Shown: positions 7,863 to 27,700, numbered from the stretch's first letter. The stretch is DNA of 64,000 nt from Candidatus Magasanikiibacteriota bacterium (GCA_036744835.1 DAIOHD010000001.1:464414-528413); one strand, 5' to 3'. Notes: generated by a model from the sequence alone, not told the origin. A program made the numbers and translations.

Positions 7863-7863
7863 A

Positions 7864-8955: not shown

Positions 8956-8958
8956 AAA

Positions 8959-9237: not shown

Positions 9238-9340
9238 AGGGGTTGAAATTAAAAAAATTCTCTATTATTATTATACCACATAAAAGAAGGACCGCCTCGG
9301 GAATTTGTTTACAAACTCCCGAGAACTCATCGGCCTTCTT

Positions 9341-9595: not shown

Positions 9596-9830
9596 ATATT
9601 TATAAGTTAAGAATTAATTATTGACTACCGACCTTTTTGTAAGTAGTTCTATATTGAATATATACCCAAAACTATATTTTGTCAAATTATTCCCCTGTGG
9701 ACAAAAAAAACAAACCTGTTCGGGTCTGTTTTTATTTTTTGTCATTCCCGCGAAGGCGGGAATCCAGTGGCAGTCAAGCAATCAAAATGGCAACAATTCA
9801 CCATACAAATCTTTCCACTCTAGTGTTTTT

Positions 9831-10379
9831 TTATTTTTTCCTATACACCCACAATAGACCCATAATTACCAACAACGCCCCGCCTATTATCCTAACCCTA
9901 ACATCTTCAAAAAAACCTTTCTCTTTGGGCTGAATGGGAACTGTCGATGAATTTGGGTCTTTTTCTTTTATTCCAACAATTTCCGCCACACTATCAGGAC
10001 AATCTTTTCTATGACAATACTCTATCCTATCGGCCAATTCCGCCGGGGTCATAGTTTCCAAAAAACCGGAAATCGGTTTATTCCCTATTATGACAAACGG
10101 GACTCCGTCAACTCGAATATCAAGCTCTTTGCCTATTTTTTGTAATAAAGAAGTGTTTTCATAATTTTGATAAACTTCAAAATCATATACTTTTAAATAA
10201 GGATATTTATTTTTAAACTGTTCAAGTAATGCTCTTTCTTTTTCACAATGAGGACAGCCTTTCCCCCAGAAGAAATACAGATTGACATCCGACTCCGCAG
10301 AAGCGGGAGCGGCGTATAGCAAACCAGAAGCGATTATTATCACTATAACAGAAATATTTAATAATAATTTATTGAACAT
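9831..10379 (-). CDS. membrane-anchored thioredoxin-like (CPHC) protein
   Basis: Signal peptide, WGKGCPHCEK active site, C-terminal TM anchor. Confidence 0.6.
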   Translation of the reverse strand: MFNKLLLNISVIVIIIASGLLYAAPASAESDVNLYFFWGKGCPHCEKERALLEQFKNKYPYLKVYDFEVYQNYENTSLLQKIGKELDIRVDGVPFVIIGNKPISGFLETMTPAELADRIEYCHRKDCPDSVAEIVGIKEKDPNSSTVPIQPKEKGFFEDVRVRIIGGALLVIMGLLWVYRKK

Positions 10380-10577
10380 AAGCTGTACGCAATTTTTAAT
10401 TTTACAATTTTACAATTTTTAATTAATTTTTAATTATTAATTTTTAAAATACTTATCATTCTAAAATCTTCACCCTGTGAAATAATTTTTGCAATCTTTG
10501 CAATTATTGTACCACACCTAAAAACAAAGAGGCAACCCTGGGGCCACCTCTTTTTATTTAAATTATTTATTGTTTGT

Positions 10578-11639
10578 TTACTGGTTTAATGCCGCTCTCG
10601 TTGCTGTATCCATAATTCCCGTAGCTGTCAAACCTTTGGCTTTTTGATAATTAACCAAAGAGGTTTTTGTCACATAACCGAAGTATCCGGTAATAGAAGG
10701 ATAATTGAAATATCCAAGATCTCTCAATTTTTGTTGTAATGCTCTAACCTCATTACCTACAGATCCAAATCGAATTTGTGCTGTGAATCTGAATAATTTC
10801 GGATTGGTACCGACAAACTGTTGCCAATTTGTTTGACCGATAGCCCAAGTATAGTTCTTGGCATCAGTAACACTAAACAATCTACCAGAATTTACCAAAT
10901 TGGTAATACCTTGTCTTTGTTTTTCAGTCAAACCAGCGCGGAATTTTACCGTCAAACTATCTACTTGATAAGTGGAAACCGCTCCAGTCACAACTAGGGT
11001 TACCGGAGTAGCTACAGCTACTGTTTTTGTAGTTTTGACAGTAGTTGGAGTTCCCGGAACATTCAACACGGCGAATTTGGTAAAATGATTAATAATAAAA
11101 ACTACCGTACCAGCAGCCGGATCAATGATAGAACCTGGGATCAACACCCATTCATTAGTGGTTTCATTCAAGAAATAAACACCGACATTACTGACATCAG
11201 CTGGCAAGCTCAAACCGCTAAAAGTAATGGTGAGATTATTGTTGAAATTAGTAACTGAATTATTATTGGCGTCAGTGGCTGAAATCATATAAACTCCACC
11301 ACCTATAGCAGAGCCATTGGTTGGAGAAAAATCTCCCAATGAACTACCAACGACTTTGAAAGTCGCGCTACCGGTAAAAGAATTTACAGGGATAACAATA
11401 TGAACAGAATCATCGTCTCCGGTATTGTAAGTCAAAGCGCCGGCCTGTGTTCCGTTGATAGTCAAAGGAACATCAATTGCGGTAATAGAAGTGATAAAAC
11501 TACTGGAAGATCCTCCTCCACCACCTCCGCCGTAACCGAAAGCGACACTAAACCCAAATAGAGAAAAACCCAAACAAAGAGCAAAAACAATAAAAGTTTT
11601 TGCTAAAGGATTTTTCAAAAAAATACTTGCTTTTTTCAT
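10578..11639 (-). CDS. secreted protein with C-terminal peptidoglycan-binding domain (PG_binding_1)
   Basis: Signal peptide, a Gly7 run, beta-rich middle, C-terminal VRALQQKLRDLGYF...TGIMDTATRAAL. Confidence 0.6.
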   Translation of the reverse strand: MKKASIFLKNPLAKTFIVFALCLGFSLFGFSVAFGYGGGGGGGSSSSFITSITAIDVPLTINGTQAGALTYNTGDDDSVHIVIPVNSFTGSATFKVVGSSLGDFSPTNGSAIGGGVYMISATDANNNSVTNFNNNLTITFSGLSLPADVSNVGVYFLNETTNEWVLIPGSIIDPAAGTVVFIINHFTKFAVLNVPGTPTTVKTTKTVAVATPVTLVVTGAVSTYQVDSLTVKFRAGLTEKQRQGITNLVNSGRLFSVTDAKNYTWAIGQTNWQQFVGTNPKLFRFTAQIRFGSVGNEVRALQQKLRDLGYFNYPSITGYFGYVTKTSLVNYQKAKGLTATGIMDTATRAALNQ

Positions 11640-11781
11640 AATTTGAGAGTTATAATTAAAGTAATTAATTTTAGAAAAATATAAACAAAAAATATTTCCC
11701 TAAAGAATATATTTATATTATAATACTTTTACTTCTTAGCTACAACCAGCCAAATAATATAACGGTGGATAACTTTTTAAA

Positions 11782-13293
11782 ATGAAACAAAAAATATTCT
11801 ATACAATTCTTTTTTTGACTATATTTAGCGGTTTTTTGCTACGTTTTTATAATTTAGACAAACAATCCTATTGGATGGATGAGGGCTACACCATAAATGC
11901 TGTTTTGTCTGTTTTAGAAAAAGGAAATACAATTTTAGACTCCGGACAAAATTATTTTTGTCCGATGTATTGCTATCCAACGGCCTGGGTTGCCCAAATT
12001 TTCGGATCAAACGCCACATCTTTTCGTATTCTGTCGGTAATCTTTGGTATTTTCTTGATATTTGCGGTTTATTTTATTGTCCGCAAATTATTTAACAAAA
12101 ATTCCGCCTTACTGGCTACATTTTTTGTTTCTTTTTCTTATTGGCAAATAGCTTGGTCTCGCCAAGCCCGTTGGTATACAATGCTCACTCTGTTTTTTTG
12201 GTTGGCAATTTATTTTTTCTATCAATTTTTACAAGAACAAAACAATCGGAAAAAAATTATTTATTTCATTTCTTCATTAGTAATAACTTTTTTGGCGGTT
12301 TTGACACATCGAGTTGCTTATTTCTTGATTCCGATTTTTATAACCATCTTAGCTTTGGATTTATTGAAAAATAGAGAAAAAATCAATAAAAAAGGCGTAT
12401 TTTTGACCTTTTTTTCTTTAATATTAGCCACTTTTTTACTAGAAACAATCTTCAATTTCGGTATAACAAATACCCTACTAGCCAAATTTAGCCTCTATTA
12501 TGAGCTACCTTATTACTTAAGTTTCTTCCTAGTAAATTATTGGTTTTTCATCATTTTGTCGCTCTACGCCTATTTTGGCGCTTCTGAAGACGAAAAGATG
12601 AAGTATGGTTTATTTTTAGTGCCTTTCTTGGTCTATTTGGTGCTTTTTTCCTTTTTTACCAATATCGTCCACTATCGTTACCTATTCGCCCCAGCTTTGG
12701 GCTTCCTAATCTTGGGAGCAGTCGGTGCTATGGATATTTTTGAAAAACTTTGGCAAAAAAACAAAATCATATCTTGGGGATTTTTGGGTATTATCGTAAT
12801 TGCATTTTTTATTTCCGGACAAGGTGTTTGGAAACCACTCCCCTTTTATATTTTGGAAAACGACAACATCACCACCGGCAAAACAGATCGTCCATACTTC
12901 GGTTATACTCCCCAACCGAATTTTAATGGCGCTTATGAAGTAATCGCTCAAAATTTAAAACCCAACGAAATTGTGATTTCCTCCCACCCACATTTCAATA
13001 AAATATTTTTGCAACAGCCGGGATATTGGTTGAGATACAACTATCTTGGATTTGAAAAAAAAGTTGATCAAGTTATGAATGGCAAAGAATATTATGTTGG
13101 AGCAAAAGTGATTAATAGTTTAGAAGAGCTAAAACAAATAGCGTCTAGCACTCACGGATATGTTGTTTTTGATTATATGTCTGCAACTGGACGCATTCCT
13201 CCGGAAATTGTATACTTTATCCGCAATTCGTTTGAACAAATATATTTTGATGAAATAAACGCTTATAGTAAAATCTGGGTTTATAAATTCTAA
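11782..13293 (+). CDS. GT39/ArnT/PMT-like membrane glycosyltransferase
   Basis: First extracytoplasmic loop YWMDEGYT (DE motif), about 11 TM, C-terminal soluble domain. Confidence 0.55.
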   Translation: MKQKIFYTILFLTIFSGFLLRFYNLDKQSYWMDEGYTINAVLSVLEKGNTILDSGQNYFCPMYCYPTAWVAQIFGSNATSFRILSVIFGIFLIFAVYFIVRKLFNKNSALLATFFVSFSYWQIAWSRQARWYTMLTLFFWLAIYFFYQFLQEQNNRKKIIYFISSLVITFLAVLTHRVAYFLIPIFITILALDLLKNREKINKKGVFLTFFSLILATFLLETIFNFGITNTLLAKFSLYYELPYYLSFFLVNYWFFIILSLYAYFGASEDEKMKYGLFLVPFLVYLVLFSFFTNIVHYRYLFAPALGFLILGAVGAMDIFEKLWQKNKIISWGFLGIIVIAFFISGQGVWKPLPFYILENDNITTGKTDRPYFGYTPQPNFNGAYEVIAQNLKPNEIVISSHPHFNKIFLQQPGYWLRYNYLGFEKKVDQVMNGKEYYVGAKVINSLEELKQIASSTHGYVVFDYMSATGRIPPEIVYFIRNSFEQIYFDEINAYSKIWVYKF

Positions 13294-13298
13294 AACTT

Positions 13299-14333
13299 AT
13301 GGCTTGGCTTCAAAAAATTCTACACTTTCTCAAATCAATCAATTACATCCTCGTTTTGGCCTGGGTACTGCCTATTGGTATTCTTTTGACAATCCTCTAC
13401 CTCAATTTTCTGCCTTTTGGTTATGAAAAAACCTTGACCATACATGCAGGAACCGAGGGAGACGATAAAGGCGAATTTTATTTGGAAAAAAATTCTATCT
13501 TAGGCGCTCGACAATCCATTGACGGAAAAAACTTCCGTTACCTTGATGGTTTAGTTTATGCGGTCTATAAACCAAAAGCTGTTTTGCAAAATGCGACTAT
13601 AGAAGCTACTGTTGAGGGAAAAGGTGTTTCTTTTATCCTCCCGCCTGATTTGGAAAATGTTGCTTGGGATTATATTTGGGACGCACAAACTATAGCTCGA
13701 GATTTCAAAACCTCTTCAACTATTGTTATAAAAGACGACTGTCTGTATTTTGATGGTAATACCAGGTATGAATTACCAAATACAGCTGATAAATTTGAAG
13801 ACGGACCTTTTGCGGTTTATGTGGAATGGATTCCAGAAGTGGCTACAAATTCACAACAAATCGTCGGCCATTTCAATTGGGAGATCGCTCAAAATAAAGA
13901 TAATATTAGTTTTCAAGTTGGACGTATGGACACTTCTACCGGACCAACGTTTAAAATTTCTTATCCGATTAACGAAAGTTTCTTTAATCAAAAGCACATT
14001 TTATTGGCAATTTATAATCCAATTGGTGAAAATAATACTGATGGATATGCTGAACTTTTTGTGGATAATATTTTTACCGGAAAGGTTATTTTTGGAGATA
14101 GGACTATTTTGAAAAATTATGGTAAATCAAACCTGGGAATTGGTTGGAGCACACGCAATGCTCATAAAAATCTTTTTTTTAAAGGAAGTATTTATCATAT
14201 TAAATTAATTTCTACTAATTTAAATTCCCAATTAACAAATACTTGGAATTTTAAGTTTGAAGAAAAAAATATAAAAATTCCTGTTTGGGGAACTGGTGAA
14301 TTATATAAAATTAAAATAAAAGTAACAAAATAA
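13299..14333 (+). CDS. exported hypothetical protein, concanavalin/LamG-like
   Basis: N-terminal TM; beta-rich; weak LamG-like features. Confidence 0.3.
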   Translation: MAWLQKILHFLKSINYILVLAWVLPIGILLTILYLNFLPFGYEKTLTIHAGTEGDDKGEFYLEKNSILGARQSIDGKNFRYLDGLVYAVYKPKAVLQNATIEATVEGKGVSFILPPDLENVAWDYIWDAQTIARDFKTSSTIVIKDDCLYFDGNTRYELPNTADKFEDGPFAVYVEWIPEVATNSQQIVGHFNWEIAQNKDNISFQVGRMDTSTGPTFKISYPINESFFNQKHILLAIYNPIGENNTDGYAELFVDNIFTGKVIFGDRTILKNYGKSNLGIGWSTRNAHKNLFFKGSIYHIKLISTNLNSQLTNTWNFKFEEKNIKIPVWGTGELYKIKIKVTK

Positions 14334-14334
14334 A

Positions 14335-16341
14335 ATGGAAAATTTCTTATTAAAATACAGAAAATCTTTTTTGATTCTGTTTCAGAATCTCTTTTTTATA
14401 TTTATAGGATTAATTATTTTAAATAATTTTTCCATTCTTATTATAGACAAATTTATTAATATTGCGTGGCTAATTTCATTATCTATTATTGCCTTGTTCG
14501 TTTGGTTTTTCTTTTTTATCCAAAAAAATGAACTTTATTATAGAAAAAAAACTAAAATTTTCTTTAAATATGGTTTGTTATTTGGATTGTGTCTGGTAAC
14601 ATTGTCTTCCCTGAACTTTGAATTTATAAATAATATTACGTTCTTTAACAATATTATCTTTTTTCTTAATAAACAAGCTGTGATTTTGACTGTTTTGTCT
14701 ATAAATCTGGGTTTCTTCACTTTTTACTTTAATAAAGAAAAAATTGGACAAATAATAGAGAAGCAGCAAGAGAAAGAAGATACTGAAGAACAAGAAAGAA
14801 TGGCTTCTTTGTCTAAAAATTTTCCAAAAATATCTACTCTTCCGCTATTAAAAAATTTATTGAGTTGGATTAATAAAGAAGGTTTTGGATACGTTACTTT
14901 ATTAATCTTTTCTCTAACATTATTTTGTATAATTTATTTAATAAACATATCATACACAAAATTCATTGACATCGACGAAACACGGTTATTTTATGATGCA
15001 ACGCTAATTTTAAACGGCTTTAAACCCTTCACTGATTTTGTAGCCAGAGCTCCTTTTGTTATATACTTTTTGTCAACTTTTATATACTTTTTTGGCCAAA
15101 AATTACTTCCTTTATATATATTATCCGTAATCTTGGTTTTATCTATTTTATTATTATCTTATTTCTTAATTAAAAGATTATACAACAAAAAAATTGGGAT
15201 AATCAGCGTAATCGTTTTTGGTTCAGCTCCAATAATACTAAACCTGCTTTATGTGAAAACACAAACTTTCTCCGTTTTTTTAATGTTGCTATCAGCGCTA
15301 CTCTTTGATAATTATCTTCTAAAAAATAAGAGGCTTTATTTTTTTATTAGTTTATTATTATTTCTCTTTTCGTTATTTACAAGGATTTCTTGCATAGTCT
15401 ATTTATTAATTCATATTTCACTATTCATAAAACGCAAAGAATTTAATATTCGACAAATAATAAAGACTTTTTCTTTATATTGTCTGGTTTTTATAATTTT
15501 TATATTAATAAATTCATTCTTTTTTCAAGGAGAAAAATCTAATGCGATTGGTCTATCGTCTTCTTCTAATTTAACATTCGATCTCAAAGAAGCAGACATA
15601 GCGCGACTAAGGCTCATTCCTGTTTACCTCTCTTCCTCTTTTGTTCTTTTTATTATTTTAAGCACACTCTCACTTCTATTTTCTGTTCCTTTTATATCTA
15701 ACAAAAAAAATAGGACTGTCTATGTGTTGCCGATTTTTGCAATTTTAATTTATATTTCATTATATACTTACAACATTCTAAGACAACATGGTTTTTGGCC
15801 ACAATATTTAATGGAATTTAGTTTTTTTTATATCATCCTTGTTAGTATTTTTTTGTATAAAATGTTTATTCTTTTCGAGCAAAAATATTTTAAATATTCT
15901 TTATTTATAATATTAATTCTATTTCTAATAATATCCCACATCCATTCCTATACATATCTTAAAAACGATGCCGGTTGGATAGACAAGGATGTTGCATCTG
16001 AAGTTTCTGTATATATAAATCAAAAAACAGACCCCGCTGATTATATTTTTGGAGGCGTCCCAATTTATTCGTTTCTATCCAACAGAAGAAATATATTAAA
16101 TTTATCCCACTCTTACTATAATGAAAATTCAGTATTGACCGTTACAGATTTTATAAAATACAATCCACCAAAATTTATTATTAGCGATATTTATTTAAGA
16201 AAATACTATATTACCAATGATAATTTCAAACAAGTTCTTGATGACAAATACGAACTGCTTAAAATTTTTGCTATCGGACCTAATAAAAGTATTTCTGATG
16301 TTGAAGTTTATGGATTAAAGACTAATCCGCTTTCTTTTTAG
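14335..16341 (+). CDS. large polytopic membrane protein (second GT39/GT83-like candidate)
   Basis: 668 aa, more than 12 TM; directly follows the GT39 gene and the exported protein. Confidence 0.4.
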   Translation: MENFLLKYRKSFLILFQNLFFIFIGLIILNNFSILIIDKFINIAWLISLSIIALFVWFFFFIQKNELYYRKKTKIFFKYGLLFGLCLVTLSSLNFEFINNITFFNNIIFFLNKQAVILTVLSINLGFFTFYFNKEKIGQIIEKQQEKEDTEEQERMASLSKNFPKISTLPLLKNLLSWINKEGFGYVTLLIFSLTLFCIIYLINISYTKFIDIDETRLFYDATLILNGFKPFTDFVARAPFVIYFLSTFIYFFGQKLLPLYILSVILVLSILLLSYFLIKRLYNKKIGIISVIVFGSAPIILNLLYVKTQTFSVFLMLLSALLFDNYLLKNKRLYFFISLLLFLFSLFTRISCIVYLLIHISLFIKRKEFNIRQIIKTFSLYCLVFIIFILINSFFFQGEKSNAIGLSSSSNLTFDLKEADIARLRLIPVYLSSSFVLFIILSTLSLLFSVPFISNKKNRTVYVLPIFAILIYISLYTYNILRQHGFWPQYLMEFSFFYIILVSIFLYKMFILFEQKYFKYSLFIILILFLIISHIHSYTYLKNDAGWIDKDVASEVSVYINQKTDPADYIFGGVPIYSFLSNRRNILNLSHSYYNENSVLTVTDFIKYNPPKFIISDIYLRKYYITNDNFKQVLDDKYELLKIFAIGPNKSISDVEVYGLKTNPLSF

Positions 16342-17194
16342 CAATAAAAATTATCGGGTAGTATAGATCAAATTTGATAAATAACCACGATACAAAACGA
16401 GTGATTCTTGTCTTTCTTAAAAAACCTATACACCTCCCTAAAAACTTATTACTAGTCCAATGCTTTTTTATCCTTTCCTCGGATAAATTTTTTTTGAAGT
16501 TTTTTTCTCCTAAATCCAATATTTCTAATCCCAGCTGTTTAGACCAATTTTTTATTTTCTTTAGAGTTATAAACTGAAGATTGTCTATAAAATTTGTATT
16601 TCTTCTAAAAATTTTAACATACCACTTAGCCATTTTTTTGTTTAGAAAAGGAAGCCAAAACAAACCAAAATGCCCTTCCCAAAACGAATGGTAATTGGGA
16701 ATAACAAAATAAATTATTCCTTCTTTTTTTAATACCCTTTTACATTCTTCCAACACCTTCAAAGGATTTTGTGTATGTTCCAAAACTTGAAACGAAACAA
16801 TCAAATCAAATGTTTCGTCACTATAAGGTAATTTTTCTCCAAAACCTTTTTTTATACAACTTTCCACACCATTCTTCTCAAAAAGTATTTCTGAAGCTTT
16901 AAGTGAATTATCCTCGGGTTCAATACCAAAAGCCTCAATACCTTTTTTTCTTAAATACATTACCAACATTCCTGATCCGGAGCCAATCTCTAATATTTTT
17001 TTATTTTTTAGTTGTTCTTCGTTAAAAATTTGCTTGACCCTTTCATATCTTTCTTCAATTCTTTCCAAATTAAACTGATTTTCTGCACCAAAGTCAACAT
17101 TTGCTTCTAAATTTTTACAAACATTTTTATAATCAACTTTAATATAATTTTTTATAAGATTTATACTTTCTTCCGGTATTATAATTTCTGACAT
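16322..17194 (-). CDS. class I SAM-dependent methyltransferase
   Basis: ILEIGSGSGMLVMYL motif I. Confidence 0.6.
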   Translation of the reverse strand: MSEIIIPEESINLIKNYIKVDYKNVCKNLEANVDFGAENQFNLERIEERYERVKQIFNEEQLKNKKILEIGSGSGMLVMYLRKKGIEAFGIEPEDNSLKASEILFEKNGVESCIKKGFGEKLPYSDETFDLIVSFQVLEHTQNPLKVLEECKRVLKKEGIIYFVIPNYHSFWEGHFGLFWLPFLNKKMAKWYVKIFRRNTNFIDNLQFITLKKIKNWSKQLGLEILDLGEKNFKKNLSEERIKKHWTSNKFLGRCIGFLRKTRITRFVSWLFIKFDLYYPIIFIAKKKAD

Positions 17195-17204
17195 ATCACT
17201 TTAA

Positions 17205-18152
17205 TTATTTTTTTAATATAAAGACTATTCCACCTAAACTATTAATTATCACCAAAATCGAAAAAGACAAAAAAGCGGCGGCAACAGCCAAAGTGGAAGA
17301 AAGGCCTATGCTGATAAAGAAAAACACAAACGAGGCCTCTCTTAAACCTATTCCGCTAATTGATATTGGCAACATTATAAAAAGTGTAGTGATAGAATAC
17401 AAAAGAAAAACAAACCAAATACTTAACTGGACACCCAAAGCACTAATTATAAAAAATGTATACAAAATCGATAAAAACTGAAAAACAAAAGATAGAACTA
17501 ATGCAAAAAAAATATCTTTGGAAAAATCTTTATAAACTGTCATGGCCTCATAATATTTTAATAGAGTACTTCTAAATTTACCTCGTGTTAAATAATCTCT
17601 TAAACGTAATGAATTTCTTGTCAAAAAAAATAAAAAAAAGAAACCTAAAACAACAACAAATATCAATATGGCTAAAATGATTATTTTTGGTGGGTAATCA
17701 AATTTTGTACCAGCAACAGCTCCAGCAAACGATAAACAACTTAGTGCAAAAAATCCTAAACATCTGTCAAAAAAAATTGAAGCTAGCGTCTTTTCAAACG
17801 GAGCCCCGTCATTACTGACAATCTTTGCTCTTACAAAATCTCCGCCTATAACCGTAGGTAGAAAAGTATTAAAAAACATACCTGAATAATAAGCGCTACA
17901 TGATTTACCCAAAGAAACTTCGATATTTTGTTTTCTAAGAAGAATTTTCCATTTAATACTGCTTACTATAATACCTATATAGATAATAACGACTGAAAAA
18001 AACAAGTAGTATAAGTTAACGTTTTTAAGCACAACTACCAATCTATAAAAATCTATTGAATGTAGAATAAAAAATAAAACTAGCAATGATATTGCTGCCT
18101 TTATAAAAATTTTTATCTTTTTATCAATCATATCTCGCTTATTGAATAGCAA
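17205..18152 (-). CDS. flippase-like / lysylphosphatidylglycerol synthase TM-domain family protein (UPF0104)
   Basis: FLPTVIGGDFVRAKI motif; about 8 TM. Confidence 0.5.
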   Translation of the reverse strand: MLFNKRDMIDKKIKIFIKAAISLLVLFFILHSIDFYRLVVVLKNVNLYYLFFSVVIIYIGIIVSSIKWKILLRKQNIEVSLGKSCSAYYSGMFFNTFLPTVIGGDFVRAKIVSNDGAPFEKTLASIFFDRCLGFFALSCLSFAGAVAGTKFDYPPKIIILAILIFVVVLGFFFLFFLTRNSLRLRDYLTRGKFRSTLLKYYEAMTVYKDFSKDIFFALVLSFVFQFLSILYTFFIISALGVQLSIWFVFLLYSITTLFIMLPISISGIGLREASFVFFFISIGLSSTLAVAAAFLSFSILVIINSLGGIVFILKK

Positions 18153-19459
18153 TATTTGCCACTTGGTAAAGGTGGTATATCATCCACAAAAACCCATCTT
18201 ATAACTAAATTATCATCTGACATTTCACCACGAATACAGGTTTCAATTTTTTCTTTTTGTTCTTCAAAAGAATTTTTATTTTTTAAAACCACTTTTATTT
18301 CAAGTAAATCTAAACTTTTTTGGATCAGTTGATATTTAAAAAAACAATTTTTATTAAAGGTAATTCCTACAAAAAGAATAAAAAACTCACAAGGAATCAT
18401 TTTGCCACTTTTTGTTTTTAACATATTCATTTCTCTACCTTCAATTTTCTCCAATTTCCCATAATTTGTCGAGAGTGTTGCCATATCACCAATATTATAC
18501 CTGATCAAAGGCATAATAAAATTATTAAGTGTTGTGATATAAACTTTACCAGACTGTTTTGATAAAACGGCTTTTTCATCATGATCTAATACTTCCACAT
18601 AATTGTTCCAAAAATTTATTCTTAATTCTCCACTATCATCGTTTGAACAGGCTATATTTCCCGCTTCCCTCGAACCATATCTATTAAAGACCTTGCAGCC
18701 GAAAACTTCCTCAATGTCTTTTTTAATTTCAAAATACAATGTGCCAGCAGATGTTGTTATACTTCTCGGAAAAAATATCTTTATTTGTCTATTCTTAATA
18801 AATCTCGCTAATTCATGTAGCGGATGGACATACGACTCTACAGAATTTGGTTTAAATTTATTCCATTTTAATACAAAATTGGTCAAAGATGTTTCAGATA
18901 ACTTAAAAGCATTTATCTCCGTACGATTATATATCCAATTTCTAACTCGAATAGAAAATTTCTCTTTTCCCTCCAACAAATCTCTTTCTGAACCCCACAA
19001 ACGTAATTCTTTATCGCCCACATTCTGACCATTATTTTTTTTAATAAAAAGTTTATCGGCCGTATTCCATTCATTATAATACTTATCCTGAAAAAAACTG
19101 ATGGGTTCACCTGTAGATCCTCCGGAAAGGTTTTCGTAAGCCCCTCTTCTTTTAATTCTAGAAATTAAATTCTTTTCCTCTCTTCTAATAATTTGTTTTG
19201 TTAAAATTGGAATTTTATCAAAATTTTCCAAAAATACTTCGTTGTTTTTTACAACACCCGCTTCTTTTAAAACTCTTTCATAATAAGGAACATTTTGGGA
19301 AGCATAAAGCAATAAAACTTTTAATTTGTTTTCTTGATATTGTTTTTGTTGTTCAATAGGGGCTGAGGATATTTTTTTAATTTCTTTAAAATAACGTGGT
19401 ATTTTACTGCCAGTTATGTAAAGTAAAAAATATATTAAAGGTTTTCTCCAATTAAACAT
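18128..19459 (-). CDS. phenylacetate-CoA ligase / CapK-like adenylate-forming enzyme
   Basis: GGSTGEPISF P-loop-like AMP-binding motif. Confidence 0.5.
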   Translation of the reverse strand: MFNWRKPLIYFLLYITGSKIPRYFKEIKKISSAPIEQQKQYQENKLKVLLLYASQNVPYYERVLKEAGVVKNNEVFLENFDKIPILTKQIIRREEKNLISRIKRRGAYENLSGGSTGEPISFFQDKYYNEWNTADKLFIKKNNGQNVGDKELRLWGSERDLLEGKEKFSIRVRNWIYNRTEINAFKLSETSLTNFVLKWNKFKPNSVESYVHPLHELARFIKNRQIKIFFPRSITTSAGTLYFEIKKDIEEVFGCKVFNRYGSREAGNIACSNDDSGELRINFWNNYVEVLDHDEKAVLSKQSGKVYITTLNNFIMPLIRYNIGDMATLSTNYGKLEKIEGREMNMLKTKSGKMIPCEFFILFVGITFNKNCFFKYQLIQKSLDLLEIKVVLKNKNSFEEQKEKIETCIRGEMSDDNLVIRWVFVDDIPPLPSGKYCYSISEI

Positions 19460-19460
19460 A

Positions 19461-20132
19461 CTATTTATTTACCTTAGCAATACAAATTATTGATGGCTGA
19501 AAAATTTTAGGTAAAGTTTTGACAGGATAAAGAAAATGCAAAAATCCTATTTTGCTTTTTTGTCCCAACGTCAATTTTTTCATCTTAATAAAAGAAACAT
19601 CAAACCCTTGATTCTCTAACTTTTTTTTAAGTGTTTTATGTGATTGTGAAGAAACATGAAGATCGTCATTTTTTCTTGAAAAAAAATTAAACAATCTTTC
19701 AACTATTAAATTCGGTGTGGAAAAAATATAAAAACCTTTTGGTTTCAAGATTCTCTTGACTTCATCAAAATGTCTTTCCAACTTTGGTAAATGTTCAATT
19801 AACTCACTACTTACAACAATATTATAAGAATTATCTTGTAAATTAATGTTTTCTGCATCAATTTCATTTAAAACAATCCCGTTGATTTCGCGAGCCAACA
19901 AAATATTTTGTGGATTAAAATCACTACCGTCAATATTAAATCCTTGCTTTGTTAACTCTTTAACTAAAAATCCCCTACCCGAACCAAGTTCTAATATTTT
20001 AATATTACTTTTATCTTGAAAATTTTCTAGATATTCTATCAAAGAATCCTGTTTAGTTCTCCATTTTTGGATTATATCTGAACCAGTGTTTTTTTGAACA
20101 AGATTAGAATATTTTTCCTTAAAATTATTCAT
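19461..20132 (-). CDS. class I SAM-dependent methyltransferase
   Basis: ILELGSGRGFLVKEL. Confidence 0.6.
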   Translation of the reverse strand: MNNFKEKYSNLVQKNTGSDIIQKWRTKQDSLIEYLENFQDKSNIKILELGSGRGFLVKELTKQGFNIDGSDFNPQNILLAREINGIVLNEIDAENINLQDNSYNIVVSSELIEHLPKLERHFDEVKRILKPKGFYIFSTPNLIVERLFNFFSRKNDDLHVSSQSHKTLKKKLENQGFDVSFIKMKKLTLGQKSKIGFLHFLYPVKTLPKIFQPSIICIAKVNK

Positions 20133-21240
20133 AAATTTGTGAATATTTTTTTACCACAAAATTCCAACTCATTTTCTCTGCTTTTTGCCTACTGACTATT
20201 TTCATTTTTTCTAGTAATCCCCTACTATTATAAAATTTCTCTAAAGCATTATAAATTTCTTCCTCGCTATTTTTGTCCACTATTATACCATTTTCTTCGT
20301 TAATGAGCTCTTTAGAACCTCCGACGTCCGTTGTTATTATAGCCAATCCGGATGCCATGGCTTCAAGCACAGAATTGCTCATACCTTCGTTCAAAGAAGG
20401 TAAAACAAACACATCGGCTCGTTGATAAATTTTAGGTAAATTTTTATGTTCAACTGAACCAAAAAACTCTACTTTTTTATCTAATCCGGCAACTTTTATT
20501 TTATTTACAAATTCTTCTTTTAAATCCCCATCACCAACAATAAGTAGCCGACTATTTTTATATTTTCTCTCAAAATCAACAAACGCTTCAATTAAATATT
20601 TAATTCCTTTTCTTTTAATCAAACGCGAAGTGGAAATAATAACAAATTCACCATTGTCTTTTGTAACAGGAAAAAATTGTGCCGTATCTACTCCGTTATA
20701 AATAACAGAAATTTCTTGGTGTGGTGTTATTTTTAAAGCCAGATCTTTAAGTCCTTGAGAATTAGCGATTATGGCCTTAGATCTTTTCCAAATTTCTTTA
20801 CTTAATCGTTTAAAAAATAATTTATCTAACCAATAAAATCTTTTATTATAAAAAGGGACATCCGAACCACGCAAACTAACAATATAAGGAATTTTTAATT
20901 TCATCGCAATGTATCCGCAAGGAATCCCAAAAAAAGCATGTACTAAATCAATTTTTTCTTCTTGCTTCAATTTTTTACAATAAAAATAAGCTTTTATCGA
21001 ATAAACTAGGAGATCTTTGATACTTTGGTAATGGAAATTTCCTTTTTTATTAATATCAAGATAATGAATACAAATATTATCACTAAATTGCTCAATTTTA
21101 AATTTATTAACTGAAGAGGTAACTAAATCAATCTTTAAATCGGGGTATTTCGCAAATTCTTTAAGTAGATAATGGGTAGCATTGCCTGCTCCCCCGCCAA
21201 GAGGCGGAAATTCATAATTTAATACAAGAATTTTTTTCAT
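20125..21240 (-). CDS. GT4 family glycosyltransferase
   Basis: EGMSNSVLEAMASGLAIITTDVGG (E-X7-E region). Confidence 0.7.
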   Translation of the reverse strand: MKKILVLNYEFPPLGGGAGNATHYLLKEFAKYPDLKIDLVTSSVNKFKIEQFSDNICIHYLDINKKGNFHYQSIKDLLVYSIKAYFYCKKLKQEEKIDLVHAFFGIPCGYIAMKLKIPYIVSLRGSDVPFYNKRFYWLDKLFFKRLSKEIWKRSKAIIANSQGLKDLALKITPHQEISVIYNGVDTAQFFPVTKDNGEFVIISTSRLIKRKGIKYLIEAFVDFERKYKNSRLLIVGDGDLKEEFVNKIKVAGLDKKVEFFGSVEHKNLPKIYQRADVFVLPSLNEGMSNSVLEAMASGLAIITTDVGGSKELINEENGIIVDKNSEEEIYNALEKFYNSRGLLEKMKIVSRQKAEKMSWNFVVKKYSQIYE

Positions 21241-21244
21241 GTTT

Positions 21245-22099
21245 TTATTTCTTTAATAAAACATTTGTTATCCCACATTCTACATTTTTTCCAAAAAACA
21301 TTGGATTTATTTTAACTTGTTCTATAGAAAAATTTTCTATCTCGCTGTTTATTAAAGACAAACCATTGTCTGCAAATACTTTTATGTAATCGTCATAACG
21401 CCAACGATTGGTGTAGGACACTCCTTCTTTGGTTAAATATTTATTCCAGGCATAATCTGAATATTTATAAAACAAAAAAGGAGAATTAAAATTATAATGA
21501 TCACGTAAATCAATGTGATGATACATATAACCACCCGATACCAAAATTTCTGCCAATTTTTTTATATTTTCCGTTATATTTTTTATGTGCTCAAAAACAC
21601 TGATGGAATAAATAAAATCAACACTGGTTTTGATATCGCTTTCCACAAGGTCTTTACTGATAAAAGTAATATACTCACTCTTAATATTATTACTTTTGTC
21701 TAGAAAAAATAAACTATCAATTTTGTATTTATTTTTTATATAATCAATCTCTTCTAAAAAATACTTCAGTTGTTTTTTTGTTTTTATTTGTCTAGGAAAT
21801 TTATCGATCAAAATGACTTTTTTTGATCCTTTTAATAAAAAATTATAAGCATTAATGTATGAATTACCTGGTCCCAATTCAAGAATTACCTTATCTTTCA
21901 AATTAATATTATTTTTTAAAATACATTCATACATCTTTTCAAATCTCCTGTCTAACTCAATAAAATTACTAGAATATAACTTCCAAAATAAAAATTTATT
22001 AAATATTTTACTAACAAACCCTAATTTACAATAACTAAATCGTATCGAAGCATCAAACTTGTCAAAAACAAAACTAGCAAACCTATTTTTAATTTGCAT
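21245..22099 (-). CDS. putative methyltransferase
   Basis: ILELGPGNSYINA motif I-like. Confidence 0.4.
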   Translation of the reverse strand: MQIKNRFASFVFDKFDASIRFSYCKLGFVSKIFNKFLFWKLYSSNFIELDRRFEKMYECILKNNINLKDKVILELGPGNSYINAYNFLLKGSKKVILIDKFPRQIKTKKQLKYFLEEIDYIKNKYKIDSLFFLDKSNNIKSEYITFISKDLVESDIKTSVDFIYSISVFEHIKNITENIKKLAEILVSGGYMYHHIDLRDHYNFNSPFLFYKYSDYAWNKYLTKEGVSYTNRWRYDDYIKVFADNGLSLINSEIENFSIEQVKINPMFFGKNVECGITNVLLKK

Positions 22100-23051
22100 A
22101 TTTATCTGTTTTGATTACTTCCCTAACATAATATCTTTTTTCCGTAGTTGAAGAATTAAACCTGATTTTCATAAGTAAACCGATAATTATACCAAAACTA
22201 AAAAACATTATTCCGGATAATAAAAAGAAAAATGTAACCAACGTCCAACCGTTTCTATTTAAACTCAAACCAAAAACCAATTTACCGTGGAGTGTCCAAA
22301 AACCGGAAAGACCGCCCAATAAAAATGAAATAAAACTTAAATAACCAAATAGATGAAGAGGTCTTTGTGAATATTTATTTAAAAACCAAATATAAATAAG
22401 ATCTATAAACCCTCTAATAGCTTTGGTACACCCATATTTACTTTCTCCTTTTACTCTCTGTCTATCATTTACAACCATTTCACCGATAGAAAAACCTTTC
22501 CAACGTAGCAAGGCGAGAATATAACGATGCATCTCCCCTTCAATATCTAGAGATTTTACCGCTTCTTTTTTATAAACCCGCAAAGAACAACCAGTATCGT
22601 GAACAATATCGCTGATAAATAATCTTCGCAGGCTTCTGCCGATTACAGTCAATATTCTAATACTCGCTTTATCTTGACGGTTTTTTCTCCAACCAGCAAC
22701 AACGTCCAGATTTTCTTCTTGTAGCTTCTTTAAAAGCACTGGAATGTCACTGGGATCATTTTGCCCGTCTCCATCCAGTGAAACCACCAAATCCCCTGTA
22801 CAGGCCTTAAAACCCGCATCAAAGGCCGTGGTTTGACCGTAATTGCGGTTAAAATTAATAATAGTAACGTTGGATAAGGACTTTAATTCGGAAAGTGAGT
22901 TATCTGTGCTTCCGTCGTTTATATAAATAATTTCAAAATTATCGGTTAATTTAGTAACCACTTCTTTGATTTCCCCGTCTAATTTTATAATATTCCCCTC
23001 TTCATTATAAATCGGAACGACCACAGATAAAGAGTTGATTTTGTTTTCCAT
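22089..23051 (-). CDS. GT2 polyprenyl-phosphate sugar transferase (GtrB/Ppm1/ArnC-like)
   Basis: VVVPIYNEE, YINDGSTDNS and DGDGQNDP motifs plus a C-terminal two-TM anchor. Confidence 0.7.
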   Translation of the reverse strand: MENKINSLSVVVPIYNEEGNIIKLDGEIKEVVTKLTDNFEIIYINDGSTDNSLSELKSLSNVTIINFNRNYGQTTAFDAGFKACTGDLVVSLDGDGQNDPSDIPVLLKKLQEENLDVVAGWRKNRQDKASIRILTVIGRSLRRLFISDIVHDTGCSLRVYKKEAVKSLDIEGEMHRYILALLRWKGFSIGEMVVNDRQRVKGESKYGCTKAIRGFIDLIYIWFLNKYSQRPLHLFGYLSFISFLLGGLSGFWTLHGKLVFGLSLNRNGWTLVTFFFLLSGIMFFSFGIIIGLLMKIRFNSSTTEKRYYVREVIKTDKYAN

Positions 23052-23199: not shown

Positions 23200-23862
23200 T
23201 TATTTCTTCTTTTTCCCTAGTGCTTTTTTCGTAGCCACTTTTTTTACTGCCTTAACTTCCTTTTTAACCTCTACAACTTTTTTTGGAGCAGCGATTTCTT
23301 TTTTAACTTCAGGTTTTATAGTTTTTTCTACAGGAGCGTTTGGAGCTAAGATTTTCATCAAACGATCGAGTTTGACGTGTAAACCTTTGACTTCAGCCAT
23401 GAGCTCTCCGGAATCTTTACTACCACCTTTTTTATCAAAACAGTTATCACAGAAAACATCTTTGCCTTGCATTGGTTTGAAAGGCACTTGGCATTTCTCA
23501 CCACATTTAGCGCAAACTGCATCGTGCATTCCACCTCTGTCTTCAAAGCGAGGTCTCTCTCGTCTTTCTCCTCTATCGCCACCTCCGAAAGAACCACGAC
23601 TTGGTCTATCAGAACCTCCGCCTTGTTTTTCAAAACAAGAACTGCAGAAAACAGGTCTGCTACCAGTCGGTCTAAAAGGAATTTCACAATCCTTACCACA
23701 TTCACTGCAAGTAGCCTGGTGCATTTGAGGACGACCTCCGTCCCTACCACCAAAACCACCTCGACCACCGCTAAATCCACCTCTGTTACCACCACCGAAG
23801 GATCTTCCTCCTCCGCCGAATGATCTACCACCCGGTCTTTTTGCTCGATTAAAATCTCCCAT
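23200..23862 (-). CDS. RGG-box protein with two CxxC-x17-CxxC zinc ribbons and a Lys-rich tail
   Basis: GGRSFGGGGRSFGGGNRGGFSGGRGGFGGRDGG; CSECGKDCEIPFRPTGSRPVFCSSC and CAKCGEKCQVPFKPMQGKDVFCDNC; C-terminal KKEVKAVKKVATKKALGKKKK. GC-rich, so three shadow ORFs overlap it. Confidence 0.55.
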   Translation of the reverse strand: MGDFNRAKRPGGRSFGGGGRSFGGGNRGGFSGGRGGFGGRDGGRPQMHQATCSECGKDCEIPFRPTGSRPVFCSSCFEKQGGGSDRPSRGSFGGGDRGERRERPRFEDRGGMHDAVCAKCGEKCQVPFKPMQGKDVFCDNCFDKKGGSKDSGELMAEVKGLHVKLDRLMKILAPNAPVEKTIKPEVKKEIAAPKKVVEVKKEVKAVKKVATKKALGKKKK

Positions 23863-24574: not shown

Positions 24575-24700
24575 TAAACTCCACCCCACCCCTCCTCTTG
24601 AATAAGAGGAGGGAGGTTTCCCTCTCTTCTATTAAGAGAGGGATTAAGGGAGAGTCAAAAAGACCCGCTTCGTCAGCGAGTCTTTTTTTGTATTGAGATT
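24575..24700. terminator. bidirectional terminator region: twin CCUCCUCUU/AAGAGGAGG hairpins plus a U-flanked hairpin between greA and the giant gene
   Basis: cctcctctt-gaat-aagaggagg; ccctctctt-ctatt-aagagaggg; aaaagaccCGCttcgtcaGCGagtcttttttt (short CGC/GCG stem, weak). Confidence 0.55.
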
Positions 24701-27700
24701 TAGAATCCTATCCTGGAAGTATACGCCAGTATTTTGGAAATTATAGTTTCTCCAAGAGCAAACCCGGACATGATAGTTGACGGTAAAGTTCGCACATAAG
24801 AGGTTTTGATATTGTTTTCCAACATCCCCAAAGCGGTTATTTCGCGCAAAGTTTTATCTTCATCTACAAAATAATTTCTTCCGCCGATTTTAGCAAGCAT
24901 CCCCGGATAAACCGTAGCTTGAGTGATGCTTTCGGAACTCTTCACATAATATGGCCATTCGGACAAGCCGATAGTTTTGGCTTTGAATTTATCACCAAAA
25001 ATAGTTTTGGCTGCAGATAGAGTGATTGGGTATAGAGTACTGTTCAAACCAACCACATACAATTTATCCGAACTTAGATATTTTACTACTTCCGAACCAG
25101 GACGATAAAACACATGATAAGGAGCTTCCATTGGTTGACTCAAACTATCAAAACAACTTTGCGTAATAGATTTATAATATTTGGAATAATTATCATCCGC
25201 ATTCCAAGATTTGAAAACATCACCATCGGAGAAATATCGATAATTCATGTTATTGTCAAGCACATAGATAGCCGGTTTGCCCTCAACTTTGATCATATCT
25301 CCAGGAGCCAAAATACTACAAGTATCTCCGACTGCAAAGGTTGATGTACTGACAGCATCCGGACTATAAGTAATACTGGAAAGATAAGTGTTGGTCATAC
25401 CACCATTGGAGGATCGGAACATCGCGTAAATAGTTTTTCTACCATTATTTGAAGAAAGGGTAAAACTTTTGGTAATAGCGTATTTTTCCCAAGTCGTATC
25501 AATAAAACTGGATTTTTCTGAAACTACCATTTCTGTAGCATTGGCAACATTGAAACTTACACTCACCGCTCGTTCCTTGGTGATAAGTGCGCCACCATTA
25601 ATCACTACCGGATTTCTACCAACTGTCGGGATAGTTAAAACAGGAGCCACGACAACAATCGGTGTACTACCGCCGCCACCACCGCCTCCGCCGCCACCAC
25701 CAACATAAGTTTGAGTGTAAGCGATGTAATCAGTAAAGTGCTTGGTCCAAATTACCAAATCAGAACCAACATTTATCCTACAATCACCTCCGGCAGATAG
25801 AGCATCTCCAACTACCTGAGTATCAGCGCTACAAGTAGCAGTAATTTTAGTGAAAGTTGTTCCGCGATAATAACCGGCAAGATATCCTGATTTACCAGGC
25901 ATCAAAATCCTGACTGCTTTATCAAAATTCAAAGCTGTGTCACCAAAGCCAAGAGATATTACCGTATTTACAGTTGCGCTATAACCGGAATCAGGAGTTA
26001 CCGATACAGAGCTGGTAGCTTCGATAATTGGTAAAGAGATAGTACCGTTCCAGGTGCTTGTTGGAGTTGTGACAGTCATACCAGCTGGGAAAGTTACTTG
26101 AACAATACCGATAGTTGTTGAAACATTAACAGTGATCGAACCGGGAATGGCACCAACTGTAGATGTGGTAGAAGTAGCACTAGTTGCCGAAATATCTAAA
26201 TATATTGTAGTTGTAATACTGTCTGATACAGTGACTGTGGAAGTTGCTGTACTGTTATCACCGATTAAAATAATTGGTGTAGTCGTATTACCCTGAGTAG
26301 AGGTTGTTAGATTTTGCTCATCCGAACCAACTGATAAAACCCAGACTGTTCTGGTGGTAGAAGCGGTGTTGGAAGAACCATCGGTTGCAGAATAAACAAC
26401 ATAATATGTTCCCGTGACGTTAGTATTGACTGGGTTAGTAACATCAACTGTTGTAGTACCGTAAACAGCATCATAAGCGGTAGCGCCAAAATCTGTATAA
26501 ACCGTACCTACATAAATCTTCATATCCTCGCCTATTTTGGTAATAACCGGAGGAGTTGTGTCTGGACCAACTTTACCGGCTTCAAAGGTATCAATAGCAT
26601 TTTGTAAAGTGATCACTTCAGCATCTACTGTGGCTTGTGAAGAAGTGTTAGTTACTCCTTGAGCATGAACAATTGCTGTATTCAATGTTGTTTTGGAACC
26701 AACAGCATATTGACCGGGCAAAGTTCCTTCTACAGCACTACCATAAATAATGGTCGCAGTAGCGATTTTTGCATCAAGAGATGAAGTGTTGGACAACGGT
26801 ACTTTACTGGCTTCAAAAATATCAATAGCTCCTTGCAAAGTAGTTACTTCAGCATCTACCGTAGATTGTGAAGAAGTATTGGTAACTCCTTGAGCGTGGA
26901 CAATAGCTATATTGAAAGTAGTTTTGGACCCCGCAATATAATTTATCAATGGAATATCACCTTCAACCGCTGCATCATAAGTACTGGTAGCTACGGCAAT
27001 TTTAGTATCAAGTGCGGACACATCAGATAGTCCTACTTTGCTGGCTTCAAAATTATCTATGGCGTCTTGTAAATCAATAACCGCTTGGTCAATGGTTGCT
27101 TGAGAAGAGGTATTGGTATAACTTTGCGCGGTTTCAATTTCCGGTAAAAATATTGCTTTGGATCCTGAAACATAATGTACAATCGGGATATCACCTTCAA
27201 CCGCTGTATCATAAGTGCTGGTAGCTATAGCGATTTTAGCATCAAGTGCGGACATATCAGATAACGGGATTACACTATCTATGAAATCACTTTCTGCTTG
27301 TTGTAAATTTAAAACTGCTCCATCAACTTCCGATTGTAAAGAAGTACTGGTATAACCCTCTGCTATTTGAATCGCTGATAAAAATGTATTTTTTGAACTG
27401 GTAGTATATTGTCCTGGTAAGGTTCCGGTTACCGCCACATTGTACATAGCGGTGGCAGTAGCAATTTCAGCATTTAATTCTGTCATATCCGCATAAGGAG
27501 CGATGTTCACAATGTATACTTTTTGTGTTCCATTTTCCGCAGTCACAGTATAATTTACCGAATTGGTAAAATTTTGAGATACATCGCTTTCCGGATTTAT
27601 TGTCGCCAAAGAGCTTTCCAATTCTATGCTTGGAGTCAAAGAAGTAACAACTGTACCGGTCGAAACACGTATATCAATAGTGGAGGTAATTCCTTCATTT

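Follow-up and report, generated by a model that had tools for sequence, protein, structure and literature searches.

Gene content and arrangement of the locus

The window, by which is meant the whole stretch of 64,000 nucleotides that was analysed, comes from an ultra-small CPR/Patescibacteria bacterium. The locus at 11782-23051 holds ten ORFs, both end coordinates being exact ORF boundaries (Table 1), arranged in two convergent operons on the + strand (11782-16341) and the - strand (23051-16322), with intergenic gaps of -25 to +10 nt in each. The original prediction of eleven consecutive genes was thus right about the cluster but not about the count. The gene classes that it named were all found by family profile searches, including a single GT4, a CapK_C/PaaK-like enzyme and an LPG_synthase_TM flippase-like protein. 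The ‘three or four’ SAM methyltransferases are also present, although there are three, all of class I, and no fourth. Methylated sugars, likewise predicted, are plausible because the cluster encodes these three methyltransferases. The CapK/PaaK-like enzyme, which presumably adds a non-sugar substituent, scores 56-88 bits against the NCBIfam PaaK-type ligase models, all under their cut-offs, and has a copy with 53% identity in one other locus (L016).

Table 1. Features of the glycosylation locus and its upstream neighbour, in window coordinates.
Feature	Position	Strand	Evidence and remarks
PG_binding_1 protein, secreted	10578..11639	-	PF01471 60 bits; divergent from GTC1
GTC1, GT-C fold glycosyltransferase (PMT_2/PMT)	11782..13293	+	PF13231 54 bits, PF02366 33.7 bits
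LamG/ConA-like lectin-fold ectoprotein, membrane-anchored, 344 aa	13299..14333	+	lectin/CBM fold
GTC2, second GT-C	14335..16341	+	PF13231 32.8 bits (cut-off 26.1)
MT1, class-I SAM methyltransferase	16322..17194	-	Methyltransf_11 and Methyltransf_23, 75 bits each; variable segment
MprF-TM-like (UPF0104/PplT) lipid flippase candidate	17205..18152	-	PF03706 143.5 bits, TIGR00374 95 bits; variable segment
CapK/PaaK-like adenylate-forming enzyme	18128..19459	-	PF27533 CapK_C (precomputed); variable segment
MT2, class-I SAM methyltransferase	19461..20132	-	Methyltransf_23 69.5 bits; variable segment
GT4, cytoplasmic glycosyltransferase	20125..21240	-	Glycos_transf_1 139 bits, Glyco_transf_4 64.5 bits; variable segment
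MT3, SAM methyltransferase	21245..22099	-	Methyltransf_23 37.9 bits; conserved alongside GT2 in close relative
GT2, GtrB/ArnC-type polyprenyl-phosphate glycosyltransferase with C-terminal TM hairpin	22089..23051	-	ArnC/GtrB matches
Swapped low-GC centre: most of GTC2, MT1, flippase, CapK, MT2, GT4	14572..21187		BLASTN vs L038

A cassette in CPR bacteria and DPANN archaea

Judged by gene order, the locus is built on a cassette common to CPR bacteria and DPANN archaea. The synteny check that had been suggested recovered the order GT-C, LamG, GT-C, then flippase, GT4s and GtrB-like GT2 in about 30 independent CPR and DPANN loci, so the grouping is not a matter of chance. One of these loci is verifiably archaeal, being flanked by genes for a proteasome alpha subunit, SBDS and RNase J. 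The LamG gene, between GTC1 and GTC2, is the signature gene of the cassette, and GT2 is its most conserved gene, with a median identity of 65% in 17 loci, among which are the archaeal L015 (63%) and L027 (62%). The number of GT4 genes in related loci is one to three. The flippase slot is filled by a Wzx-like protein in 17 loci and by an MprF-TM-like protein in seven, and by both in none. Homologues of the PG_binding_1 gene immediately precede GTC1 in 13 CPR loci but in no archaeal locus; because it is a conserved neighbour in CPR loci only, its product is a candidate for a substrate or partner and not an established component of the machinery.

GT2 and lipid priming

GT2 has a hydrophobic C-terminus and aligns end to end, TM hairpin included, with solved ArnC (9hwj; E 2.6e-34, residues 5-316 of 320) and solved GtrB (5ekp; E 1e-27, full length). 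Bit scores against the solved structures are 122 for ArnC, 100 for GtrB and 48 for DPM synthase, so that the predicted ‘GtrB/Ppm1-like’ identity holds in its first half, the enzyme being of ArnC/GtrB rather than Ppm1/DPM1 type. Among the NCBIfam models ArnC is best (144 bits) and PgfS second (122 bits), both under their equivalog cut-offs; with PgaC at 58 bits and NodC at 25, a cellulose or chitin synthase-like enzyme is ruled out. An initiating enzyme of the WecA/WbaP type is missing from the window cluster and from both annotated relatives, L002 and L038, which leaves GT2 as the sole lipid-priming enzyme.

The GT-C transferases and the LamG protein

Both of the expected PMT-like polytopic transferases match PMT_2 (PF13231) above the gathering cut-off in Pfam profile searches, GTC2 matching this family alone and GTC1 also exceeding the cut-off for PMT (22.7 bits). 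GTC1 has about nine TM helices and a C-terminal extracytoplasmic alpha/beta domain, and GTC2 about 15, including an N-terminal extension of four or five. GTC2 is fast-evolving, and BLASTP gave no homologue aligned over at least 60% of its length. Both proteins have the GT-C fold and carry an Asp-Glu acidic motif in the first extracytoplasmic loop; in GTC2 this is D214-E215, kept in 26/27 and 24/27 of the positional homologues. The OST-type WWDxG motif is absent from both. The predicted exported LamG-like protein proved to be a membrane-anchored ectoprotein with a jelly-roll, Concanavalin A-like lectin/Laminin_G_3 fold, and from this fold it may be a glycan- or acceptor-binding partner.

These assignments bear on the idea that an actinobacterial-type GT39 Pmt and a polyprenyl-P-mannose synthase O-mannosylate Ser/Thr residues of secreted proteins, with the giant neighbouring protein as the main substrate. 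The PMT match of GTC1, which scores higher still against PMT_2, the name ‘glycosyltransferase family 39 protein’ given to homologues by NCBI, and a best PDB profile match, albeit a weak one (E 0.02), to the O-mannosyltransferase TMEM260 are what this idea would lead one to expect. However, MIR and PMT_4TMC domains had no Pfam match at E<=0.01 in the cluster, and the priming enzyme resembles ArnC and GtrB rather than DPM/Ppm1. The actinobacterial frame does not apply to a CPR host, and O-mannosylation offers no role for the GT4, the three methyltransferases, the CapK-like enzyme or the variable centre described below. It is therefore improbable, in spite of the composition of its proposed substrate.

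The giant protein and the acceptor

That composition is suggestive. No protein in the window is richer in Ser and Thr than the giant protein, which is secreted (S+T 22.3%), the PG_binding_1 neighbour being second (20.1%). This speaks in favour of the predicted substrates, and the Pgf operon of Streptococcus mutans shows that such systems may adjoin the gene for their substrate. Against this, the giant gene belongs to a different transcription unit, on the far side of a zinc-finger gene and greA, and a large Ser/Thr-rich ORF lies within 10 kb in just 2 of the 36 related loci. The linkage of the giant protein to the cassette is not conserved among related loci. Surface or secreted proteins are, tentatively, the single most likely class of acceptor; a lipoglycan or glycolipid is possible with less likelihood, and a wall polymer is less likely again.

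Exchange of the centre of the locus

Comparison with a close relative (L038) reveals a replacement of the centre. Identity is high at the ends of the locus (GT2 91%, MT3 92.6%, GTC1 74%, LamG 68%), and by BLASTN the flanking DNA is 77-91% identical, whereas no similarity is found over 14572-21187. The recombination breakpoint in GTC2 lies at about 14571, so that only the first 79 or so codons of this gene are outside the swapped segment, and both the flippase and GTC2 fall within what has been replaced. In its centre the relative instead has a different GTC2, a Wzx, a nitroreductase, a pyruvyl transferase, a methyltransferase and two GT4 genes. Gene GC is 24-29.5% in the swapped centre, compared with 33-34% for GTC1, LamG and GT2. 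On these alignments, the middle of the locus is exchanged between close relatives in the manner of a serotype locus.

The exchange is informative about a simpler scheme, three-component side-chain decoration as in GtrABV, GacIJKL and CsbB/YfhO, in which the GT2 product would be flipped as a monosaccharide-P-lipid and each GT-C would attach this one sugar to a wall polymer, or to a peptidoglycan-linked glycan, of separate origin. The triad of GT2, flippase and GT-C is the defining set of such systems, the conserved divergent neighbour in CPR loci is a peptidoglycan-binding protein, and a wall exists, since genes for MurG and a Mur ligase are also present in the window. But the flippase gene is part of the swapped segment, as are those for the GT4, methyltransferases and CapK, instead of being kept with the conserved GT2, the cassette also occurs in DPANN archaea, there without the PG-binding gene, and the locus has neither separate polymer-backbone genes nor an LCP-type ligase. 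Side-chain decoration is thus unlikely, if less so than O-mannosylation. The presence of additional cytoplasmic tailoring enzymes, like the exchange of the centre, suggests that the product is an oligosaccharide and not a single sugar.

A model for glycan assembly

The prediction of an envelope glycosylation cluster in which a polyprenyl-phosphate-sugar GT2 works with a flippase and GT-C transferases is supported. The locus probably makes a strain-variable surface glycan, which would be built on polyprenyl phosphate, flipped across the membrane and transferred on its outer side by the GT-Cs; we infer the sugar, the lipid carrier and the acceptor, all three. GT2, whose family is assigned, would load a sugar onto polyprenyl phosphate on the cytoplasmic side of the membrane. 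The lipid-linked glycan would then be elaborated by MT3, which is conserved, and by the variable GT4, MT1, MT2 and CapK-like enzyme. The MprF-TM-like protein is the putative flippase because of its family and because the slot that it occupies holds either a protein of this kind or Wzx, but not the two together. Finally, the two GT-Cs would move the glycan to an envelope acceptor outside the membrane, GTC2 co-varying with the glycan genes and GTC1 being conserved, with the lectin-like LamG protein as a putative binding partner.

The flipping step is where a different pathway, resembling that for mycobacterial PIM/LM/LAM, has to be weighed. In mycobacteria the GT4 enzymes PimA and PimB, Ppm1, and the GT-Cs PimE and Mpt show the same division of labour. 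By analogy, the GT4 would glycosylate a membrane lipid, the resulting glycolipid would be flipped by the MprF-TM-like protein, and the GT-Cs would extend it outside with the polyprenyl-P-sugar made by GT2. A UPF0104 flippase and a cytoplasmic glycosyltransferase make glycolipids in Pseudomonas aeruginosa GpgSDF, where GpgS is a GT4, and likewise in Clostridioides difficile HexSDF, where HexS is annotated as a monogalactosyldiacylglycerol synthase, so the GT4 and MprF-like flippase of the window could do the same. The GT4 has sub-threshold matches to glucosyl-diacylglycerol and LTA-anchor synthases, and a glycan acceptor is compatible with a lectin/CBM-like partner. A lipid-linked oligosaccharide together with a separate polyprenyl-P-sugar may be more than one flippase can handle, PMT_2-type GT-Cs typically transfer single sugars, not oligosaccharides, and the WWDxG motif of OSTs is absent; these points count against assembly on polyprenyl phosphate and transfer of the finished glycan. 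A lipoglycan pathway has difficulties of its own: the cassette is found in bacteria and in archaea, whose membrane lipids differ, the flippase slot mostly holds Wzx rather than an MprF-like protein, and a second flippase, absent from the cluster, would be needed for the polyprenyl-P-sugar. This pathway is a possibility to be kept in mind, if a rather doubtful one.

At its boldest, assembly on polyprenyl phosphate could be extended to a CPR- and DPANN-specific glycosylation machine of GT-C, LamG and GT-C, moved between domains, that would transfer serotype-like oligosaccharides en bloc from polyprenyl monophosphate to S-layer or adhesin proteins. A PMT_2-type GT-C with a lectin subunit would then be a new class of oligosaccharyltransferase, and host attachment or evasion of phages by these episymbionts would be under the control of the variable glycan. 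So specific a scheme is quite unlikely to hold in full.

Comparison with known systems

Parts of this arrangement have been seen before. In archaea, neighbouring genes for a UPF0104 flippase (arCOG00899), a PMT/STT3-like GT-C (arCOG00563) and an AglD-like GT2 have a glycosylation role that is predicted only (Makarova et al. 2015, PMC5898192). These three Pfam families adjoin here as well (PF03706, PF13231 and PF00535 within 9 kb), and the window cassette is itself found in DPANN archaea, but it has two GT-Cs with a LamG-like ectoprotein between them and a swappable centre, and the flippase of most cassette loci is Wzx rather than UPF0104. In the S. mutans operon pgfS-pgfM1-pgfE-pgfM2, a GT2 and two PMT-like proteins glycosylate the adjacent Thr-rich adhesin (PMC5856776). 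A GtrB-like GT2 and two polytopic PMT-like proteins near Thr-rich surface proteins are shared with this system; however, the PgfS score is 121.7 bits against an equivalog cut-off of 500, the PgfE epimerase is absent from the cluster, and Pgf lacks the LamG protein, GT4, methyltransferases, CapK and flippase gene, all of which the window locus has.

The end-to-end alignment of GT2 and the Asp-Glu loop motif of the GT-Cs are likenesses to GtrA/GtrB/GtrV, ArnC/ArnEF/ArnT and GacI/GacK/GacL, in the last of which the flippase, GacK, is of the Wzx type and acts with a GtrB-like enzyme. Pfam and NCBIfam searches of the ten ORFs gave no match to a small flippase of the GtrA or ArnE/F type, and there are no ArnA/B/D genes; the role falls here to an LPG_synthase_TM/UPF0104 protein (143 bits), and in relatives to Wzx. 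With Wzx/Wzy O-antigen and capsule loci the locus shares conserved flanks and a replaceable low-GC centre with glycosyltransferases, a flippase and a polytopic enzyme, but it differs in having no WecA/WbaP initiator and no recognisable Wzy or WaaL, Wzy polymerase families being absent from the window cluster and from L002 and L038; its polytopic enzymes are PMT_2-type GT-Cs. In the Agl pathway of Haloferax volcanii, the GT2s AglJ and AglD prime dolichol phosphate, AglR is the flippase, AglS a GT-C and AglB the OST. What is common is the logic by which a GtrB-like GT2 primes a monophosphate lipid that then carries the glycan, with a GT-C acting outside, and sub-threshold NCBIfam matches to AglJ (54 bits) and Agl23 (59 bits) occur at the locus, which nevertheless has no AglB-type OST.

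Implications

Should the acceptor be an ordinary wall polymer, this would be a routine glycan locus in an unusual organism. The cassette does provide a clear case of MprF-type and Wzx-type flippases replacing each other in one slot, which lends support to the idea, as yet unproven, that lipid-linked glycans are flipped by stand-alone UPF0104 proteins, and it supplies testable genes, namely the LamG family, the two GT-Cs and GT2 (62-72% identical). To our knowledge almost nothing is known of the surface chemistry of CPR bacteria and DPANN archaea, which live attached to host cells. A cassette that is conserved in both groups, and whose centre can be exchanged between strains, offers a concrete candidate for the source of a surface glycan of host recognition or phage escape.

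Organisation of the locus

The interval 11782-23051 begins and ends exactly at ORF ends and contains ten ORFs, not the eleven consecutive genes originally predicted, arranged as two convergent operons of three and seven genes with intergenic gaps of -25 to +10 nt. Pfam and NCBIfam searches recovered every predicted gene class, although of the 'three or four' SAM methyltransferases expected there are three, all class I. GTC1 and GTC2, the GT-C fold transferases on either side of the LamG-fold protein, are PMT_2 membrane proteins (Pfam), with GTC1 passing the PMT model too. Among the NCBIfam models, the GT2 scores best against ArnC (144 bits) and then PgfS (122 bits). The cluster also encodes one GT4, an adenylating enzyme of the CapK_C/PaaK-like type and a flippase candidate matching LPG_synthase_TM (UPF0104, the MprF flippase domain; 143 bits). 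In this AT-rich DNA (34% GC), a promoter and terminator scan was uninformative (60 sites seen, 65 expected), and an Rfam scan of the window gave only five tRNAs, with no match inside the cluster.

Coordinates of the locus, its neighbours and features of related loci
Feature	Sequence	Position	Strand
Cold-shock-type gene (66 aa)	Window	6671-6871, within 6617-6995	-
Overlapping ORFs	Window	7209-7691	both
Cys-rich ORF (92 aa)	Window	7328-7606	+
DUF134 and DUF5320 pair	Window	8959-9595	-
PG_binding_1 protein	Window	10578-11639	-
Three-gene operon	Window	11782-16341	+
GTC1	Window	11782-13293	+
LamG-fold protein	Window	13299-14333	+
GTC2	Window	14335-16341	+
Segment lacking DNA similarity to L038	Window	14572-21187	
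Seven-gene operon	Window	23051-16322	-
GT2	Window	22089-23051	-
Zinc-finger protein	Window	23200-23862	-
Giant secreted protein (3179 aa)	Window	24700-34239	-
DUF134 and DUF5320 pair	L025 (archaeal-labelled)	5442-6067	
Fic-domain genes	L002 (distant CPR genome)	8952-9593; 17759-18946	
Variable part	L019 (Woesearchaeota)	7061-13342	

The host is a CPR bacterium with peptidoglycan, since the window encodes bacterial housekeeping proteins (MurG, a Mur ligase, RpoD, DnaG and FtsEX) together with DUF5667 and DUF5671 proteins, and the named relatives of the LamG protein and GTC1 are all from Patescibacteria/CPR (Falkowbacteria, Parcubacteria, Taylorbacteria, Uhrbacteria and Paceibacterota). The actinobacterial frame in which the cluster was first interpreted is thus inapplicable. 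Elsewhere in the window, several overlapping ORFs on both strands at 7209-7691, where no RNA family matches, include a Cys-rich one that looks metallothionein-like, and the cspA thermoregulator RNA scores below threshold over the cold-shock gene and its leader (41.5 bits against a gathering score of 78).

A cassette shared by CPR bacteria and DPANN archaea

A profile search with the LamG family, taking one genome per species, gave 35 loci. The family is small and specific, numbering 244 representatives out of 1.84 billion at E<=1e-3 and 122 at E<=1e-30. Essentially all loci with sufficient flanking sequence share one gene order: GTC1, the LamG protein and a protein in the GTC2 position (600-770 aa, 10-17 TM helices in the relatives) are encoded on one strand, and on the other a polytopic membrane protein is followed by one to three GT4/GT2 genes, with the GtrB-like GT2 last. 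Conservation is highest for the GT2, whose median identity is 65% in 17 loci, and drops to 44% for GTC1 and 41% for the LamG protein; no BLASTP match spans 60% of the length of GTC2.

Many CPR lineages are represented among the loci, and so are DPANN archaea. One locus, L015, is flanked by genes for a proteasome alpha subunit, SBDS and RNase J and is therefore truly archaeal; its GT2 is 63% identical to that of the window, and identity across the bacterial/archaeal divide is 62-63%. As cited in PMC12455944, a 2016 study by Jaffe et al. is said to describe, in general terms, gene exchange between CPR and DPANN that involves membrane-related proteins. No description of this cassette in either group turned up in a full-text literature search, though one may exist.

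The PG-binding protein is a divergent upstream neighbour of the cassette in CPR loci only. This PG_binding_1 protein shares an N-terminal motif with its homologues from 12 further CPR loci (L002-L024): a hydrophobic stretch followed by GFG-x-AFGYGGGG, perhaps a signal or processing site specific to CPR. The DUF134 and DUF5320 pair near the cassette recurs in L025 (55% and 35% identity), and L002 carries two Fic-domain genes inside the cassette with a serine recombinase gene close by. The variable part of L019 has several methyltransferase genes weakly similar to those of the window (26-40% over partial lengths), and methylated glycans may be a recurrent theme of such loci.

Immediately after GTC2 lies a Wzx-like gene in 17 loci and an MprF-TM-like gene, the type found in the window, in seven; no locus has both. 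This alternation of two unrelated lipid-flippase families in one slot gives good, if indirect, support for flipping of a lipid-linked glycan by the UPF0104 protein of the window.

The glycosyltransferases

Residues 5-316 of the 320 in the GT2 align to solved ArnC (E 2.6e-34), and the match to Synechocystis GtrB (E 1e-27) includes the C-terminal membrane hairpin, whereas a solved dolichol-P-mannose synthase reaches just 48 bits. On these alignments the GT2 is assigned to the polyprenyl-phosphate glycosyltransferases of GtrB/ArnC type, so that the GtrB half of a predicted 'GtrB/Ppm1-like' enzyme stands and the Ppm1 half falls. Nor is it a processive synthase or a cellulose or chitin synthase-like enzyme.

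In GTC1, an Asp-Glu pair (D33-E34) after the first TM helix is invariant in 20-33 homologues, as are several Arg and Tyr positions. The GTC2 family is highly divergent, with the equivalent D214 kept in 26 of 27 members and E215 in 24 of 27. Retention of these motifs in both families indicates that both transferases are probably active. Direct searches of the PDB with GTC1 and GTC2 gave no matches and a family profile only weak ones (TMEM260 and ArnT), and the fold was therefore examined by structure prediction. The AglB-like predicted fold suggested an oligosaccharyltransferase-like role for GTC1; this reading was rejected, the WWDxG motif of those enzymes being found in neither protein.

Fusions between LamG and GT-C genes were sought in long family members and none was seen, only N-terminal extensions of 4-5 TM helices. 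Four LamG-family proteins (P0301, P0304, P0308 and P0268) have such an extension in place of a single helix. The one in P0304 is weakly similar to the extension at the N-terminus of GTC2 (E 2.9e-6, 16 bits), a likeness that hints that the LamG protein and GTC2 meet in the membrane.

A swappable centre

The close relative L038 has the same flanks (YibE, DUF134 and DUF5320 proteins, 92-100% identity) and the same ends of the locus (PG-binding protein 77%, GTC1 74%, LamG protein 68%, MT3 methyltransferase 93%, GT2 91%). DNA similarity is absent from the segment between, where L038 instead encodes another GTC2 and a flippase of Wzx type, along with a nitroreductase, a pyruvyl transferase, a methyltransferase and two GT4s. 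The replaced part is the low-GC part, at 24-29.5% per gene compared with 33-34% for GTC1, LamG and GT2. Glycan loci that determine serotype are built in this way.

The variable tailoring genes are accompanied by GTC2 and the flippase, and no initiating enzyme of WecA/WbaP type is present in the window or two annotated relatives. For these reasons, we infer that the conserved GT2 would prime the lipid on which the variable glycan is assembled, and that the glycan would be flipped in this lipid-linked form and then handled by GTC2. The steps that do not vary would fall to GTC1, the LamG protein and the GT2.

The acceptor

Protein is the likeliest single class of acceptor, at somewhat less than even odds; a lipoglycan or glycolipid is less likely, and a wall polymer less likely still. 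In favour of protein, the cassette occurs in wall-bearing bacteria and in archaea alike. Both GT-Cs belong to the PMT/PMT_2 families, and the Pgf operon of S. mutans is an example of a GT2 and two PMT-like proteins able to act on Thr-rich adhesins next to them (PMC5856776). Makarova et al. predicted that the archaeal GT2/UPF0104/PMT-like triad acts in S-layer glycosylation (PMC5898192). A lipoglycan or glycolipid acceptor has precedents in P. aeruginosa GpgSDF (GpgS being a GT4) and C. difficile HexSDF, where a UPF0104 flippase and a cytoplasmic glycosyltransferase make glycolipids, and the CBM-like partner suggests a glycan acceptor.

Protein acceptors are also favoured by the position of the window's two most S/T-rich proteins, which flank the locus. 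The giant secreted protein (22.3% S+T) matches DUF5018, Bact_surface_Ig-like and FIVAR, and has 18 S/T in a 30-residue stretch near residue 2665 and an 11-Gly run near residue 2855. Its proposed role as substrate is weakened by its separate transcription unit, with a zinc-finger gene and greA in between, and by the presence of a large S/T-rich ORF within 10 kb in only two of 36 related loci. The intervening zinc-finger protein is Gly/Arg-rich, with two zf_Tbcl_2 treble-clef fingers and a Lys-rich tail. The glycosylation logic of the original prediction holds, but its specifics of Actinobacteria, mannose and the giant protein do not.

The locus is of a known kind: glycosylation takes place outside the membrane from polyprenyl-phosphate-linked donors, and the GT-C enzymes responsible are part of a variable glycan locus. 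What is distinctive is the dedicated LamG-fold ectoprotein sandwiched between two GT-Cs in essentially every locus with sufficient flank, the interchangeable flippase family, the restriction of the cassette to CPR and DPANN, and a GT2 that is 62-63% identical between two domains of life.
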